From an uncultured Ruminococcus sp. (GTDB lineage Bacteria; Bacillota; Clostridia; Oscillospirales; CAG-272), in assembly GCA_964630695.1 (NCBI GenBank), contig CAZVYZ010000005.1, forward strand, positions 2,487 to 66,486: a stretch of DNA of 64,000 nt, given 5' to 3'. The position numbers and the translations under genes were made by a program. The notes beneath the pieces are model-generated. The model saw only the letters and a program-made list of their open reading frames with translations. It ran no database searches and was not told the DNA's origin. Shown here piece after piece: positions 3,540 to 49,558 of the stretch (position 1 is its first letter; each line of letters begins with the position of its first letter).

Positions 3540-5667
<2,128 letters not shown>

Positions 5668-20976: not shown

Positions 20977-21092
20977 TGTGCAAACCGTAAAAAAATATAG
21001 AAAAATTGATATTGTGGTTCCCATTTTGGCAAAAAATATGGTATAATATATAAGAAAGATACCGAAAGATACGAGGAGAGGGGGATGTGACA

Positions 21093-21608: not shown

Positions 21609-21610
21609 TG

Positions 21611-21640
21611 AAAAAAGCCCGCCGGCGCGGGCTTTTTTTT
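21611..21640 (+). terminator. Intrinsic terminator after carD
   Basis: aaaaaagcccg-ccggcg-cgggctttttttt. Confidence 0.75.
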
Positions 21641-21659
21641 GTGAAATTATCCAATCAGG

Positions 21660-21688
21660 TTGACAAAATGCTTCCGATATGCTATAAT
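21660..21688 (+). promoter_or_regulatory. Sigma-A promoter of the kinase/PqqD/peptidase cassette
   Basis: Exact TTGACA-N17-TATAAT. Confidence 0.8.
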
Positions 21689-21735
21689 AAATCTATCATA
21701 AAACAGAAACCAACAGAACGGAGCGAATAACGCCT

Positions 21736-22440
21736 ATGTTTATTATCCGCCTTGCCGAAATCCGTATCCGGATTGAGAACCGATACGGGTTTATCGAGCG
21801 GCAGTGCGCCGATTACATCTGTGAGGGAGACGAATATGCGTTTTCCGTGTCGGCGAGTGAGAAAGAACTGCGCGAGGAGCAGAAAAACGGGGATTTTTCC
21901 GCCGCTTATTGCGAAAGCATCTGTCTTTACCGCCATATCTGCGAAACTCTTCCGGATTATAATATCTTTCTGATGCACGCCTCGGTTGTCGAGGTGGACG
22001 GGAGTGCCTATGCCTTTACTGCCAAGAGCGGGGTCGGAAAATCCACGCATACGGCACTGTGGCTCAAAAATATCCCGCACGCGCGGGTCCTCAACGGGGA
22101 TAAACCGCTGTTCCGTGTGGAGCCGGATGGCTCGGTGACGGCATTCGGAACCCCTTGGAACGGAAAAGAGAACTGGGGCGAAAATATTTCCGCTCCGCTT
22201 CGCGCCATCTGCTTTATCGAACGCGGAGAGGTCAATTCCATCCGCCGCGCGGCGCAGGAGGATGCTATCGGGCGTCTGGTCCATCAACTTTACCTGCGCG
22301 GCACACGGTCCTCGGTTAACAAACAACTGATACTGATGGATGCTTTGGTGCGGGCGGTGCCGTTCTGGATTCTGTCCTGCACGATTTCCGATGAAGCGGC
22401 AAAAGTCGCTTACGAAGCCATGAAATATAACGGTCAGTGA
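21736..22440 (+). CDS. HPr-kinase-like P-loop protein
   Basis: HASVV, Walker A AKSGVGKST, NGDKP, GTPWNGKE motifs. Confidence 0.7.
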   Translation: MFIIRLAEIRIRIENRYGFIERQCADYICEGDEYAFSVSASEKELREEQKNGDFSAAYCESICLYRHICETLPDYNIFLMHASVVEVDGSAYAFTAKSGVGKSTHTALWLKNIPHARVLNGDKPLFRVEPDGSVTAFGTPWNGKENWGENISAPLRAICFIERGEVNSIRRAAQEDAIGRLVHQLYLRGTRSSVNKQLILMDALVRAVPFWILSCTISDEAAKVAYEAMKYNGQ

Positions 22441-22457
22441 CCGAAAAGGAGAAGCAT

Positions 22458-22724
22458 ATGCGAATCAAAAAGGATTTTACCATTCAGAAAGTCGGCGATT
22501 CCTACATTGCCGTGGCAGTTGGAGAGACGAGCAAAACCTTTCACGGAATGGTTCGGCTGAACGAAACGGGCGCGTTTTTGTGGAAGAAACTGAATGAAGC
22601 GGACGTTACGCTTGACGAATTGGTGGACGCCATGCTGGCGGAATACGACGTGGACCGCGAGACCGCCGCGCAGGATGCGGCACGTCTGGTGGAACAGTTC
22701 CGCACAAACGGAATTCTCGAATGA
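22458..22724 (+). CDS. PqqD-family (RiPP recognition element-like) protein
   Basis: 88 aa with LNETGAFLW..L, EYDV..ETA..D...LVEQF...GIL. Confidence 0.88.
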   Translation: MRIKKDFTIQKVGDSYIAVAVGETSKTFHGMVRLNETGAFLWKKLNEADVTLDELVDAMLAEYDVDRETAAQDAARLVEQFRTNGILE

Positions 22725-23191
22725 CGGAAACCGCAGAGCCGAACGGCAACATTGAGCGACAACTTGCCGAGCAGGGGTTTTATGTCAGCACCACGGTCGG
22801 GTGCAGTATGCGACCCATGCTCCGCAACCGACGGGACCGCGTGATTGTCCTGCCCGTCGGAGCCGAACGGCTGAAAAAATACGACCTGCCGCTCTACCGC
22901 CGCCCCGACGGAAAATATATCCTGCACCGTATTATCGGTGTGCGGGACGGGGAATATATCATCCGCGGGGATAACACCTACGTGAAAGAGCATGTTCCCG
23001 ACGCGTGGGTGCTGGGCTACGTTTCGGAGTTCTACCGAGGTCGACGGCACATCCTGTCAACCGCACGGTCCTACCGACTGTATGCGCGCGTGTGGAACCT
23101 GATTTATCCCGTGCGGCACCTTTTCCATATGGGACGAACCTTTGCCGCCCGCGTGTGGCATAAAATCAAACCCAAAAAGCAATCCGTATAA
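22721..23191 (+). CDS. S24/S26-family peptidase
   Basis: GCSMRPML (catalytic Ser), YILHRII, RGDN; ATGA overlap with the PqqD gene. Confidence 0.8.
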   Translation: MTETAEPNGNIERQLAEQGFYVSTTVGCSMRPMLRNRRDRVIVLPVGAERLKKYDLPLYRRPDGKYILHRIIGVRDGEYIIRGDNTYVKEHVPDAWVLGYVSEFYRGRRHILSTARSYRLYARVWNLIYPVRHLFHMGRTFAARVWHKIKPKKQSV

Positions 23192-23223
23192 AATTTGTAC
23201 TACCATAATGGCTACCTCAATAC

Positions 23224-23324
23224 CCCCTTGCTGAAAGTTCTTGAAAGTTCTTAGGAAACTTCTTTCAAGAAGTTTCCTAAGTGGGGTTCGGGGCAAAGCC
23301 CCGAGGTCTTAGCCCCGAGGTCTT
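23224..23324 (+). repeat. Dispersed palindromic repeat, copy A
   Basis: 14-bp perfect stem with a TTCA loop plus a GC hairpin. Near-identical to the reverse complement of 38888-38974. Ends in a 14-bp direct duplication (agccccgaggtctt x2). Confidence 0.85.
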
Positions 23325-23339
23325 AAAAAGGAGAAACAC

Positions 23340-24059
23340 ATGGCGGAACTGTATCCGACGGCGCATATCGCCGCAACCCCCGCAGACTTTGCACATACGG
23401 TCCTGATGCCGGGCGACCCCCTGCGGGCGCAGATGATTGCAAGGGAGTGGCTGGAGAATGCAAAACTTGTCAATAATATCAGAGGCGTGCAGGGCTATAC
23501 CGGAACCTACCACGGCAAACGCGTCTCGGTCATGGCGAGCGGGATGGGAATGCCGTCCATGGGCATCTATTCCTACGAGTTGTTCCGCGTGTTCGGTGTG
23601 GAGAATATCATCCGCATCGGGACCGCCGGTGCAATCAAGCCCGAGGTCCGTGTCCGTGACCTTGTGTTCGGCATGGGGGCATCGACCGATTCCAATTACG
23701 CGGCAAATTTCGGACTCCCCGGGACTTTCGCGCCGATTTGCAACTATCGCTTGCTTGCCGAGAGCGTCAGACAGGCGGAATTGGCGGGCGCGACCTACCA
23801 CGTCGGCAGTCTGCTTTCCACCGACGTGTTCTACGGCGACGACCCGACCGTCAACGACCGTTGGGCGAAAATGGGCGTGTTGGCAGTGGAGATGGAAGCG
23901 GCGGCACTCTATATGAACGCCGCAAGGCTGGGAAAGAATGCGTTGGCAATCTGCACCGTTTCCAATCATATCCTCACGGGCGAGGAGACAACCGCCGAGG
24001 AGCGGCAGAATGCTTTCGGCGAGATGATTCGGCTGGCACTTGAGATTGCTCCGGAGTAA
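23340..24059 (+). CDS. deoD: Purine nucleoside phosphorylase (DeoD type)
   Basis: TAHIAA, VLMPGDPLRA, GMGMPSMGIYSYEL, IIRIGTAG, VEMEAAALY. Confidence 0.96.
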   Translation: MAELYPTAHIAATPADFAHTVLMPGDPLRAQMIAREWLENAKLVNNIRGVQGYTGTYHGKRVSVMASGMGMPSMGIYSYELFRVFGVENIIRIGTAGAIKPEVRVRDLVFGMGASTDSNYAANFGLPGTFAPICNYRLLAESVRQAELAGATYHVGSLLSTDVFYGDDPTVNDRWAKMGVLAVEMEAAALYMNAARLGKNALAICTVSNHILTGEETTAEERQNAFGEMIRLALEIAPE

Positions 24060-24275: not shown

Positions 24276-24304
24276 TTGACAGAGGAGGAAACTTGTGCTA
24301 TAAT
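24276..24304 (+). promoter_or_regulatory. Sigma-A promoter upstream of the c-di-GMP riboswitch
   Basis: Exact TTGACA-N17-TATAAT. Confidence 0.85.
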
Positions 24305-24494: not shown

Positions 24495-24692
24495 ATGGCA
24501 AGCAACAACCAAAACAATAGGGTCGGCTCTTTTGCCGCTGTCAACGGAGGGGTCATCGTGGGGTATTCTGCAAACGTAAAGTTGAGCGGATGCCCGAACG
24601 GCGCAGGCTTCGTGTTCGGAAACAGCGGCGTGGTGAAAAACTCCGTTTCTATGCGCGTAGGGCGCGGAAAGGGCGTCACGGGATTTCGATGA
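24495..24692 (+). pseudogene. 65-aa ORF, probable truncated N-terminus of a GLUG-like beta-repeat protein
   Basis: GGAGG RBS. GSFAAVNGGVI and AGFVFGNSGVVKNS resemble GLUG-type repeats; the ORF stops abruptly just before the next RBS. Confidence 0.45.
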
Positions 24693-24706
24693 AAGGAGGT
24701 GGGAAA

Positions 24707-26684
24707 ATGAAAACGAAATTCGGAAGACGGATTGCGGGCGCGATGGCGTTCTGCTTGGTATTGGCAACGGTGCTGACGGTTCCGTTCGGCTTTCTTCTTC
24801 CCGCCTCCGCCGCGGAAGCGGACTATACGTTTGATTCGGGTGCCGTGCTGATTACTTCCGAGCATAACGGCAAAAACATTCTGATTCAGAACGGTGTTTT
24901 CTCGGTCACGGTCAGCGGCGCAACAGGTGTCACGCTTCTGTTTGACAGTGTGAAGATGGACCGCAGATATTCGCAGGACAAGGACACGAAAAGCGGGAGT
25001 ACCGTTCGGGATTTGTATCGTGTTTCGACCACTCTCGGTTGGGGAACGAAAGCGCAGGTCTGTCCGCTTCTGATTACCGACAATTCGGAAGTCGAAGTGG
25101 CATTCCGCGGGACCAATACTTTTTACGCGGGTGTCAACAGCTGTACCGTCACTTCAGGCAACGTCTATGCAAGTTCGCAAAGCGGCGGCGGATTCGCGGG
25201 CATTCAGGTTGACCGCGGCTCAACCCTGACGATTCAGCAGAGCAACGGGTCTGTATTCGCCTATGGCGGTCATTACGTGGCGGCAGAGAATTCATCCAAC
25301 AATCCGAGCGACACTACCAATTTTCCGAAAGGCGGTGAAGACAAAGGTTATGGTTCGCCTGTCGGAACCACAACCAATCAACTTGCAGGTGGCGCGGGTA
25401 TTGGCGGCGGTGTAACCTACAATACCACGTCCTCTTACGGGCGGAGTTATACAACGGGACCCCCCGGGACCATTATCATCAACGGCGGTGAGATTCATGC
25501 CTTTGGCGGACATCAGGCGGCAGGCATCGGCGGCGGTCTGAACAGCGCCGCAACTGCAACCTCCATTACCATCAACGGCGGGAAAGTCAATGCCGAGGGC
25601 GGTCGTTGGGCGGCAGGCATCGGCGACGGGGACTCTTTGCAGGACCAATATACGGGGCAGTACAGCAACAGTTACTCCATCCATATCAACGGCGGAACCG
25701 TCACAGCGGTCGGAGGGGTTGCAAAATCGGGCATTGGCTGTGCGGACGGTTTATCCTCCGGTGTGAATACGACAACAACTTCGGGAATGAAAATCAACAT
25801 TACGGGCGGAATGGTTGATGCTCGGTCAGGTTACCCCGACCACTTCAATCCCTCTTCAACCACCGCTTACGAGGGGGCGGACGCTGCTGCGGCAATCGGT
25901 GCGGGAAACAAAACCCAAATGGTGGCACAGTCCATCTACATTTCGTCCGGTGTTACGATAATCGCCTCGGCGTTCGGACATTACGCCATTACCGAAAACG
26001 GTGTGGACCATGAGAGCGTTCCGCAGGTTTCCATTGAACAATGCAGAATGTACAACGGGCGGTTTCCGAACTTGGCATCAGCCCGGTTTATCCGTTGCCG
26101 GATGATATTACCGAGTGGCGGGCGAAGTTGTTGGAACTGTTTCAGGATAACAACATGACGCTCTACGCGGACAGCAGTTCGATTGAAATTTCCACTGTGA
26201 TTGCGCGGAAGCATTTCAAATCCATTGCGCTCACGTTACCGGACCCGACCGAACACGGCGGTCTTTACGCGTTGGAGATTCTGACCTCCCGGATTCTCAA
26301 TCCGCCGACGGGTATTGAACTTCCGGAGAATATCTATACAATGACAAGGATGATAACGGGAGCAATCCCTCGCACAATTATTTGCAGGTCACGCTGTCTT
26401 ACCGCGCGTTGCAGGAGAAAGATGGCGTTACCACCGACTCGATTGGCGTTACGGGGATTACCCCCGAATTGTATGGGAATGAATCTCTGAAAAATCTGAT
26501 TGAGACTATCGGCGAGAACGGCTCCGTGCTGTCGGTAGCGAAAGGCGAGCAGATTTCGGTCTGGCTGTCGCTGAAAGGGGAGCCGACTGCCAAGAATGGC
26601 GGCGCATTTACTTCCGTAAATCTCGTTCCCGTCGGAATGCTGACCATTGCGCTCGGTGGCTTCAGCCAAACAGGAGGAAACTGA
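24707..26684 (+). pseudogene. Secreted Gly/Ser/Thr-rich beta-helical surface protein, broken into three reading frames
   Basis: Signal peptide (MKTKFGRR...PASA/AE) and GGAGIGGG / AAGIGGG / AAGIGDG / AAAIGAG repeats. Frame changes near 26040 and 26320-26340 (ORFs 24707-26158, 26041-26490, ~26319-26684). Confidence 0.65.
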
Positions 26685-26685
26685 A

Positions 26686-27213
26686 ATGCACAGATACAGT
26701 ATGACCCAGATGAAAAAAGTTGTCCTCATCGGCATTGCCTGCGCGGTGCTGCTTGCTGCCGTGGTGGGGGGAATCGTGTTTGCCGCACTGCTGAAACCGG
26801 AGATTTACGATAAGCAGGCGCAGGACGGCGCACCGCAGAATCTCCCCGAACGGTTCGGCTACGTTTCCTACGAAAACGCGGCGGTCTGCAAGGTCGCGCT
26901 TGCCTGCACGCCCGATTTTGACGGGAGATACGCAAAAATCAACCTGACCAATCCGGAGCAAAACGCCGTTTTGCTCAAAGCCGTACTGTACTCGGTGAAA
27001 GAAGTCCCGAAAGAGGACGGAAGCACCGATTTCATTCCGGACAGGAAACTCGGGGAGACGGGTTTTCTTCGCCCGGGGACCTATGTGGAAAGCGTGAAAC
27101 TGAGTGGATTGACCGCGGGGAAAGAAATCCGCGTACTGGTCAAGATTGCCACCATGAATGAGGAGGACCGCACAAGCAACGGTTTCTTCTATATCAGGAC
27201 CAACCTGTCCTGA
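26686..27213 (+). CDS. Membrane-anchored Ig-like hypothetical protein of clostridial surface-fibre loci
   Basis: N-terminal TM helix; LTNPEQN.VLL, ETGFLRPG.YVE.V.L, NG motifs; GGAGG RBS. Confidence 0.6.
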   Translation: MHRYSMTQMKKVVLIGIACAVLLAAVVGGIVFAALLKPEIYDKQAQDGAPQNLPERFGYVSYENAAVCKVALACTPDFDGRYAKINLTNPEQNAVLLKAVLYSVKEVPKEDGSTDFIPDRKLGETGFLRPGTYVESVKLSGLTAGKEIRVLVKIATMNEEDRTSNGFFYIRTNLS

Positions 27214-27221
27214 TTTCGTCT

Positions 27222-27257
27222 GCCGACACACAACTTCTCCGTGTGTCGGCTTTTTTT
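27222..27257 (+). terminator. Intrinsic terminator of the riboswitch-controlled locus
   Basis: gccgacacac-aacttctcc-gtgtgtcggc followed by T7. Confidence 0.8.
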
Positions 27258-27358
27258 GCCTTTTTTTCGGCAAAACGCTTGAAGTGCGACGCATTTCATG
27301 GTATAATAATACAGTAGTGAAGTGATTGGACCGCTCTGCGCGGCTGTGGGAGGTTTCT

Positions 27359-48700: not shown

Positions 48701-49558
48701 ATGGAAACCTATATCGACCGAATCAAACTGATGAAAAATCAGAAAAAACTGACGAACGAGCGCCTGTCCGAGTTGTCCGGAGTTCCGCTCGGAACGCTCA
48801 GCAAACTGCTTGCGGGAATGAATGAATCCCCAAAACTATCCAATATTGTAGCGATATGCTCGGCACTTGACTGTTCGGTGGAATACATCGTTACGGGAGC
48901 GCCGGATAATACCAATAATTACACGTTGGAGCCGGAAGAAATTTCACTGGTGGAAATGTACCGTCGGTTGGACAGTTGGGGAAAATCCGTTGCAACCGTT
49001 GTGATTGCAAAGGAAAGGGAGCGCGTTCTCGGTACGGAATCCGTTCCCGTCGCTCCCGCTGTACCTGCTCCCGCTAAAATTCTGCGTCCGCAAATGCCGC
49101 AGGGGTCTGTCGGACGGTTTGCGGGAGAACGGATTGTCAAAGGGAAACGCTCAATTCGGCTGTATGAGTTGCCTGTTTCCGCAGGGGTCGGCGTATATCT
49201 TGACGACGCGAGAAGCGAGAAAATCAGCATCCCCGGGAACGAAAAAACGGCAGAGGCGGACTATGCACTCCGAATCAGCGGAAACAGCATGGAGCCGAAG
49301 TATCATGACGGAGATATTCTTCTGGTACAGAATGCGGACGGTGTGGAAATCGGGGAGATGGGGATTTTCCTGTTGGACGGGTCCGGCTTTTTCAAGGTGT
49401 TCGACGGCGACCGGCTTCTGTCCCTTAATCCCGAGTACGGTCCGATTCTGCTGAAAGATTTTTCCGATGTGCAGTGCCGCGGGCGCGTGGTCGGAAAGCT
49501 GAGGCGGAAGTCGAGCGCCAAAGCGGATTCCGGCGCTGAGGCGGACGGCAACGATTGA
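48701..49558 (+). CDS. XRE-HTH plus S24 peptidase repressor (CI/HdiR-like)
   Basis: LTNERLSELSGVPLGTLSKL HTH; VSAG.G, GNSMEP (Ser), FFK (Lys); promoter TTTACA-N17-TATAAT at 48642-48670. Confidence 0.9.
   Translation: METYIDRIKLMKNQKKLTNERLSELSGVPLGTLSKLLAGMNESPKLSNIVAICSALDCSVEYIVTGAPDNTNNYTLEPEEISLVEMYRRLDSWGKSVATVVIAKERERVLGTESVPVAPAVPAPAKILRPQMPQGSVGRFAGERIVKGKRSIRLYELPVSAGVGVYLDDARSEKISIPGNEKTAEADYALRISGNSMEPKYHDGDILLVQNADGVEIGEMGIFLLDGSGFFKVFDGDRLLSLNPEYGPILLKDFSDVQCRGRVVGKLRRKSSAKADSGAEADGND

Follow-up and report, generated by a model that had tools for sequence, protein, structure and literature searches.

A conserved kinase, recognition element and peptidase cassette of gut Clostridia, probably a pared-down linear polyphosphorylated peptide maturation module

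Results

A three-gene cassette with its own promoter

We analyzed 64,000 nucleotides of DNA from an uncultured Ruminococcus sp. (assembly GCA_964630695.1, contig CAZVYZ010000005.1, positions 2,487 to 66,486; this whole stretch is the window referred to below), which is housekeeping DNA of a spore-former, a Clostridium that occurs in the pig gut. Our subject is a cassette of three genes in this window, K, Q and P, which encode an HprK-like P-loop protein, a discrete recognition element (RRE) of the kind that serves peptides made on ribosomes and modified after translation (RiPPs), and a serine peptidase. The cassette had been picked out in an earlier note made from the sequence without database searches. 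The genes and the signals ahead of them are listed here by window position.

about 21610–21641, + strand: intrinsic terminator of the upstream CarD-domain gene (stem GCCCGC/GCGGGC plus A/U pairs, then a U-run)
21660–21688, + strand: sigma-70/SigA-type promoter TTGACA-17-TATAAT with a TG-extended -10 element (12/12 match)
21736–22440, + strand: K, HprK-like/ScmC-family P-loop kinase, lppK-like, 234 aa
22458–22724, + strand: Q, discrete PqqD-type RRE, lppB-like, 88 aa
22721–23191, + strand: P, anchor-less SipW/archaeal-type S26 serine peptidase, lppS-like, 156 aa

The three tightly packed genes lie where the earlier note had placed them, down to the ATGA at which the start codon of P overlaps the stop codon of Q and by which P is predicted to be translationally coupled to Q. 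One detail of that description changed: the longest open reading frame (ORF) of Q opens at an alternative GTG (22437), but Q most likely starts at the ATG at 22458, behind an AAGGAG ribosome-binding site 7 nt upstream. The sigma-A promoter that had been noticed ahead of the genes is an exact one and sits 48 nt 5′ of the K start. Since this exact pattern occurs seven times in the 64-kb window and not once in 100 shuffles, the promoter is not a chance match, and the pattern is a frequent one in this genome. Upstream, a gene at 21087/21093–21608 carries the Pfam CarD_TRCF_RID domain (E = 7e-9). Its terminator hairpin (dG -21 kcal/mol, z -4.8 versus shuffles) would insulate the cassette, as had been proposed, whereas the gene name carD used in that proposal is less secure, the CarD-domain match being only weak.

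The kinase-like protein K

Every kinase motif that had been read from K was found: MHAS (H81), SGVGKST (98–104), NGDKP (120–124) and GTPW (138–141) were invariant in 26 homologues, and H81, S98-G-x-G-K-x-T104, N120-x-DKP and P140-W141 were kept in near and distant homologues alike. Precomputed annotation assigned K to PF27840 (ScmC). No match was obtained at E ≤ 0.1 in our local Pfam copy, including to Hpr_kinase_N and Hpr_kinase_C, and a sequence search against the PDB returned nothing at E ≤ 10. The AlphaFold2 (AF2) model of K (predicted local distance difference test score, pLDDT, 92) had HprK/P and PEP carboxykinase (PEPCK) as its top Foldseek matches (E ~2e-6), with TM-scores to HprK/P of 0.36–0.53. 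With 234 aa against about 310 aa, K resembles a conventional HPr kinase/phosphorylase at the fold level only.

K also carries four cysteines, C24, C59, C63 and C69 (CESIC-x5-C plus C24), which are 96–100% conserved in 50 close homologues and mostly missing from 13 distant ones. The N-terminal domain may bind a metal through this clade-specific cluster.

A related pairing of an HprK-like P-loop protein with a PqqD-family protein occurs in the SynChlorMet ScmC/ScmD and HPr-rel-A system, to which the PF27840 assignment of K also points. K matched TIGR04249 (19 bits versus a cut-off of 125) and TIGR04352 weakly, far below their cut-offs; TIGR04248 (15 versus 100) and TIGR04353 were further weak matches of the cassette. 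Unlike that system, the cassette has neither a second kinase nor a ScmE/F radical SAM/SPASM protein, and contains an S26 peptidase instead. This and the other negative statements about window genes refer to the genes scanned, that is, to codon-usage gene calls annotated with Pfam, a few genes near both ends lying outside the Pfam scan.

The recognition element Q and the peptidase P

The PqqD-family identity proposed for Q was borne out by a match to PF05402 (Pfam E = 5e-19); its best NCBIfam matches, below cut-off, were lasso PqqD chaperones.

In P, the predicted GCSM (S29; GxSM box), HR (H69-R70) and GDN (G83-D84-N85) motifs were all present and were invariant in 25 homologues, as was E90. 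Neither its sequence nor its AF2 model (pLDDT 82) showed an N-terminal hydrophobic segment, in keeping with the claim that P has no membrane anchor at that end. In the model, a short helix (10–18) and a beta core are followed by a long basic helix at the C-terminus (116–149), and the top Foldseek matches were SipA, SEC11A, SpsB and LexA/UmuD. P had no Pfam match, and a PDB sequence search gave nothing at E ≤ 10. Its best NCBIfam match was TIGR02228 (E = 1.1e-5; 25.4 bits versus a cut-off of 51.85), and it scored 12.7 bits versus a cut-off of 190 against the SipW model NF046067. P thus shares with the SipW/archaeal/endoplasmic reticulum-type signal peptidases (TIGR02228; Sec11) the S26 fold, the Ser-His pair in GxSM/HR boxes and the GDN box, but it differs from them, and from a housekeeping type I signal peptidase of the SipW type, in having no anchor, in scoring below the family cut-offs and in being coupled to an RRE rather than to secretion. 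The ATP requirement of K and the missing anchor of P place both, by prediction, in the cytoplasm.

The window also encodes, 25 kb from the cassette, a canonical LexA-type repressor (48701–49558; HTH_3 plus Peptidase_S24), so that the cell has a further S24/S26-clan protein besides P, from which P differs clearly.

Comparison with the linear polyphosphorylated peptide pathway

Linear polyphosphorylated peptides (LPPs) were defined by Popov et al. (Nat Commun 2026;17:6633; PMC13381572), starting from SipW-like type I signal peptidases (SpIs) in Bacilli. The LPP gene set comprises the SpI LppS, the discrete RRE LppB, the HprK-like LppK, the NTP transferase LppN, the MsbA-like exporter LppD and precursors, and the model cluster, lppA-K-B-S-D-N, is that of Paenibacillus alginolyticus DSM5050 (PMC13381572). 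The Bacilli precursors reach 200 aa and share the leader YxxPxVLxHQxIxFETxxS (PMC13381572). In Bacillus subtilis, LppK puts up to four phosphates on Ser3 of the core and LppS takes off the leader, cleaving the unphosphorylated precursor poorly; in vitro LppS requires LppB, and cleavage is lost in the S29A, H68A and D93A variants (PMC13381572). The functions of LppK, LppB and LppS were established by deletions, mass spectrometry and in vitro cleavage, and the pathway has no cyclase (PMC13381572).

The window cassette has the same content and order, K-Q-P corresponding to K-B-S. The profile of P aligned with LppS (WP_029196374.1; hhalign 91.7%, E = 7.8e-7), with S29 of P on the catalytic S29 of LppS and H69 on the catalytic H68; LppS D93 aligned near the invariant E90 of P and not with any Asp. 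TIGR02228, the best match of P, marks all 126 SpIs of the LPP paper (PMC13381572). Q, encoded beside the peptidase gene and overlapping it, matched LppB in a BLASTP comparison (E = 3e-6); its PDB matches were TbiB1 (E = 6e-4), TfuB1 (E = 5e-3) and LppB (9x8z_B, E = 0.11). K has the place of the HprK-like kinase in this order, with an HprK/P-PEPCK fold and an intact P-loop. No counterpart of the LppD exporter, of LppN or of the lppA precursor was found near the window cassette, while its relatives share with LPP clusters an MsbA-like exporter, NTP_transf_5, occasional capsule loci and the absence of a cyclase.

The Clostridial branch to which the window belongs enters the LPP dataset, a February 2019 collection of 199 analysed sequences, mostly from Bacilli (PMC13381572), only within minor network clusters with precursors given as "ND" (not determined). 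P is 37% identical to one such entry, the Oscillospiraceae SpI SCH01704.1, for which an RRE is listed and the precursor is "ND" (PMC13381572).

Conservation of the cassette

A scan of one genome per species with a P alignment revealed relatives of P in 283 species genomes, from which 80 loci (50 close and 30 distant) were fetched. At E ≤ 1e-3 the P family as a whole, clustered at 50% identity, had 3341 representatives, and the stricter limit of E ≤ 1e-10 left 1241. In a neighbour-joining tree, window P fell within a monophyletic clade of 51 P sequences, including those of the 50 close loci; the clade was nested among relatives with larger clusters, and the Bacilli LppS lay outside it.

The earlier note had made its case depend on the three genes occurring together in other genomes, and K and Q were indeed collinear with P in 49 of the 50 close loci, with flanking genes that differed among the relatives checked. 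Q adjoined P in 76 of the 80 P-anchored loci, making Q-P, not K-Q, the most conserved unit. The least saturated comparisons with near relatives gave dN/dS values of about 0.03–0.15 for K, Q and P (0.04–0.06 for K versus loci L007–L012). Short contigs of pig-gut metatranscriptomes matched K and Q at 95–99.5% identity, weak evidence of expression.

None of the 50 close loci had an exporter (within 5 kb) or NTP_transf_5, and one had a precursor; the exporter was present in 8 and NTP_transf_5 in 9 of the 30 distant loci. The K-Q gaps of 200–360 nt in L004, L019, L060, L072 and L082 held no conserved peptide ORF, and small-ORF clustering around the close triads yielded out-of-frame shadows of neighbours and no common precursor. 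Greedy longest-ORF calling gave antisense artefacts in high-GC loci, and those clusters were excluded. In one sub-clade (L037, L041, L043, L044, L046, L048–L050), an ORF of about 57 aa (MEPKNY.VTRIEGEYAYL...) begins at or right after the P stop; judged by eye, it looks DUF3006-like.

Larger relatives and a precursor family

The deeper-branching loci, from Lachnospiraceae, [Ruminococcus] torques ATCC 27756, Bifidobacterium, Olsenella, Slackia, Eggerthellaceae and Paludibacteraceae, add an MsbA-like exporter (ABC_membrane plus ABC_tran) and NTP_transf_5, and sometimes lie beside LCP/Wzz/CpsD capsule genes. Near these larger clusters we found a family of short precursors, ORFs of 36–50 aa with the leader MKKx[YF]xxPExE[IV]xxF..D[IV]ITTS followed by an acidic core; in a narrower form the leader reads MKKxFxEPExEVxKF..EDIITTS. 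A profile search retrieved 165 such peptides at E ≤ 10, all named at most "hypothetical protein", and no NCBIfam model matched the family. Like the Bacilli leaders, the Clostridial ones have the RRE-binding motif [Y/F]xxP and a junction rich in Thr and Ser, but their full patterns differ ([YF]xxPExEVxxF..D[IV]ITTS versus YxxPxVLxHQxIxFETxxS), as do the cores, which are short and acidic in the Clostridial family and Gly/Asn/Pro/Lys-rich in the two Bacilli cores read here.

The precursors adjoin P, K or Q in P-anchored loci, including a close relative of the window cassette, L016, whose P is 70% identical to window P. There, a 922-aa secreted protein, the precursor (MKKVYSMPQVSMTYVGEEDMITTSG...), a terminator, a promoter and K-Q-P follow one another, the precursor lying about 500 nt 5′ of K. 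In Coprococcus phoceensis the full array reads large surface protein, precursor, P, x, K, Q, exporter, NTP_transf_5. A reverse test, a metagenome scan anchored on the leader motif alone, returned 80 loci with 52 distinct peptides. P, K or Q lay within 6 kb of 24 of the 37 distinct precursors with at least 1.5 kb of downstream sequence, and P lay within 1 kb of 13 distinct precursors. Six of the 15 precursors with at least 5 kb on both sides had no P, K or Q and were thus orphans.

The Clostridial precursor genes differ from those of the LPP clusters in usually coming after a gene for a large secreted protein: a same-strand ORF of at least 500 aa ended within 250 nt 5′ of the precursor gene for 35 of 43 distinct Clostridial precursors (for example L016 1442–4405, L059 7212–9818 and L063 2462–5137; also L066, L085, L091, L093 and L095–L174). 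The partner proteins checked have a signal peptide, F5/8 type C, NPCBM, Big_2 or Flg_new domains, and conserved C-terminal domains. [Ruminococcus] torques ATCC 27756 has two loci (L059 and L063), one with surface protein-precursor-P-K-Q and the other with surface protein-precursor-P alone.

Acidic low-complexity proteins of 130–220 aa, membrane-anchored or lipoprotein-like, adjoin K, Q or P in some relatives (L064 1274–1795, L066 3405–4073, L069 9227–9664, L082 7906–8556, L084 3503–3907, L085 7915–8439, L086 8458–8904), and their ends repeat the short motif that closes the local precursor core (for example L086 ..NSIELPVIPIG versus ..DPIELPVIPID; L085 ..NRFGPIIDG versus ..GGGFGPIIG). We had first assumed these proteins to be the substrate and demoted them once the leader-bearing short peptides turned up.

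Some homologues of P are fused into proteins of 365–571 aa (P0442, P0476, P0483 and P0488), and in Paludibacter an SpI is fused to an MsbA-like exporter (747 aa; sequence similarity network cluster 8; PMC13381572). Such fusions argue that cleavage and export are physically connected in some lineages.

Partners absent from the window

The earlier note had remarked that no cyclase, radical SAM enzyme, transporter or short precursor ORF accompanies the cassette, and this observation stood. Among the window genes scanned there was no lasso cyclase, B2 protease or RiPP/SPASM radical SAM enzyme, the sole radical SAM gene (3540–4874) encoding a MiaB-type UPF0004 methylthiotransferase. The whole window contained no homologue of the relatives' MsbA-like exporter (phmmer, E ≤ 1e-3), no match to NTP_transf_5 at E ≤ 10 and no homologue of the relatives' large partner proteins (tblastn). 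Nor did a leader hidden Markov model (HMM), regular expressions and an intergenic ORF scan find a leader-bearing precursor ORF in the 64 kb. A window scan for the motif [FYW]G[EPSD]hh gave chance matches inside housekeeping genes, such as that for SpoIIIAE.

Discussion

We consider it probable, at about three chances in four, that the cassette is a maturation module of the lppK-lppB-lppS type from a Clostridial branch of the LPP pathway. As far as homology and gene order can tell, the window cassette is an LPP homologue cut down to its recognition, phosphorylation and cleavage core, a divergent orphan variant of a known pathway. The match to that pathway supports the earlier proposal of a module that combines RRE-guided phosphorylation with Ser-peptidase cleavage, and the kinship to paeninodin-type lasso clusters noted there, with a different class of protease and no cyclase, agrees with how LPPs were defined.

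By analogy with that pathway, a short ribosomally made precursor would bind to Q through its [Y/F]xxP-type leader, which would join Q as an extra beta-strand. K would use ATP to phosphorylate a Ser near the leader/core junction, a candidate being the invariant Ser of ..D[IV]ITTS.., and Q would present the junction to the cytoplasmic Ser/His peptidase P, which would remove the leader. The homology, the order of the genes, the catalytic residues, their conservation, and the occurrence of the precursor family in relatives with its linkage there are observed; each of these biochemical steps in this organism, as well as action in trans, we infer. Because the window lineage kept only three genes, the precursor and any exporter or tailoring enzyme must be elsewhere in the genome. 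With neither a precursor nor an exporter in the neighbourhood, the simplest account is that the module acts on precursor genes not linked to it. The earlier suggestion of a substrate encoded elsewhere gains support from the orphan precursors of relatives.

Several observations weigh against the assignment to the LPP pathway. The window proteins are only 24–25% identical to the characterized LppS and LppB, K is likened to LppK by fold, P-loop and gene order rather than by sequence comparison, and in the PDB Q scores higher against the lasso RRE TbiB1 than against LppB. No exporter lies near the cassette; no precursor-like ORF was seen in the window or in 49 of the 50 close relatives, so that within this clade a substrate is seen only in L016. 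The RNA evidence is thin, with a depth of 2–3 and possible DNA carry-over, and the final LPP product and its role are not known even in the model system (PMC13381572).

The best-placed alternative, which we nevertheless regard as rather improbable, is that the trio matures a protein, either the large secreted proteins encoded before precursor genes or the acidic membrane-anchored low-complexity proteins. The close spacing behind large ORFs (35 of 43 precursors), the signal peptides and F5/8 type C, NPCBM, Big_2 or Flg_new domains of the partner proteins checked, the C-terminal motifs shared by the acidic proteins with local precursors and the recorded LPP precursors of up to 200 aa (PMC13381572) are all consistent with a protein substrate. 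However, an HMM search found the leader motif absent from the large and the acidic proteins, the candidates are exported whereas K and P are predicted to be cytoplasmic, and the window has no homologue of the large partners.

K, Q and perhaps P could also be accessory genes that have become separated from a paeninodin-type lasso cluster somewhere else in the genome. The paeninodin/pseudomycoidin clusters combine the kinase PadeK, a B1 RRE, a B2 protease, a C cyclase, the nucleotidyltransferase PsmN and a D exporter. They resemble the cassette in that an HprK-like kinase acts on a precursor Ser and a discrete PqqD RRE reads a [Y/W]xxP leader (PMC7533575, PMC13381572), and their accessory NTP transferase and ABC exporter recur among the cassette's relatives. 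Firmicutes lasso clusters typically contain HprK-like kinases and discrete PqqD RREs (PMC7533575), about one third of the Bacilli SpI loci adjoin lasso genes (PMC13381572), and the best NCBIfam and PDB matches of Q are lasso B1 proteins. Against this origin, neither an Asn-synthase-like macrolactam cyclase nor a transglutaminase-like B2 protease (Transglut_core3) turned up in the Pfam-annotated contexts or in those large neighbours and window genes that were scanned. The gene for Q is coupled in translation to that of an SpI-like peptidase, a hallmark of LPP clusters; Q-P rather than K-Q is the most conserved unit; and LPP and lasso RREs discriminate between their respective precursors (PMC13381572). 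The leader would here be removed by a Ser/His S26-type peptidase, and the product would be expected to be linear. We therefore rate a lasso origin as very unlikely.

Less probable still is that the cassette is an inactive remainder of a formerly complete LPP cluster from which the genes for precursor, exporter and NTP transferase have gone. The window does lack three of the six core LPP genes, and the close loci lack the exporter and NTP_transf_5 (0/50 each) and nearly always the precursor (1/50). Decay is hard to reconcile, however, with ORFs of all three genes that are intact across 50 species-level loci, with invariant catalytic residues, with the purifying selection indicated by the dN/dS values (0.03–0.15), with a consensus promoter belonging to the cassette itself, or with metatranscriptome contigs matching K and Q.

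That K is a conventional HPr kinase/phosphorylase acting on HPr beside unrelated neighbours, a possibility that the earlier note had set against its own proposal and that the P-loop and HprK/P-like fold might suggest, can be dismissed on domain content: K has no Pfam Hpr_kinase_N or Hpr_kinase_C match, only 234 aa with a different N-terminal domain, TM-scores to HprK/P of 0.36–0.53, an assignment to PF27840 (ScmC) and strict synteny with Q-P.

Returning to the LPP-type module, we offer a broader proposal that is speculative and on balance unlikely as it stands. The K-B-S cassette of gut Clostridia would be a trans-acting maturation hub for scattered genes encoding short acidic precursors, paired with large secreted carbohydrate-binding surface proteins, and the phosphopeptides would not be antibiotics in their own right but would work together with the biology of the cell surface or capsule, for instance as anchors, tags or signals. 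If so, the window lineage would be an extreme case in which every substrate is unlinked.

The RRE-kinase-SpI core is widespread in uncultured gut Clostridia, with relatives also in Bifidobacterium, Olsenella/Slackia and Paludibacteraceae. Its conserved and selected form with three genes, in whose vicinity precursor, exporter and transferase are all lacking, points to RiPP maturation in trans, a mode that escapes cluster-based genome mining. The points of interest are this form acting in trans, a Clostridial precursor family that carries no annotation and the puzzling pairing of those precursors with genes for large surface proteins, and the cultured carriers [Ruminococcus] torques ATCC 27756 and Coprococcus phoceensis make product and function testable.

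Surroundings of the cassette

A V-ATPase operon and the CarD-like gene lie upstream of K-Q-P. The next gene 3′ of the cassette encodes a purine-nucleoside phosphorylase (PNP; 23340–24059) and is followed by a variable surface-protein block, nadE and an MFS transporter gene; further downstream come the genes for SpoIVA, pheST, gpr, spoIIP, the LexA-like repressor, EpsG and the spoIIIA operon. One more feature separates P from PNP.

23222–23287, + strand: strong hairpin 3′ of P, possible terminator or repeated element (perfect 15-bp stem, 23250–23281)

This hairpin (dG -37.6 kcal/mol, z -4.1; inverted repeats I1 and I2) has no U-tract. Its 15-bp stem (CTTAGGAAACTTCTT/AAGAAGTTTCCTAAG) also occurs in several unrelated short contigs of one run at 5–20 times the local depth, which suggests a dispersed repeat, and two small tandem duplications (23232–23251 and 23297–23324) flank it.

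Upstream of the surface-protein block lies a c-di-GMP-I riboswitch (RF01051; 24324–24406; 51.4 bits, E = 4e-7), with a second perfect TTGACA-17-TATAAT promoter (24276–24304) directly ahead of it. The stretch between PNP and nadE (about 24500–27300) is strain-variable, as comparison with L087 (12767–20422) and L088 (12765–14491) revealed. Of a 506-aa protein that L087 has in full, the window and L088 both retain a remnant of 65 aa (MASNNQNN...TGFR). Both also have a shortened beta-helix-like secreted protein, whereas in L087 a 1158-aa gene precedes the genes of four small secreted proteins.

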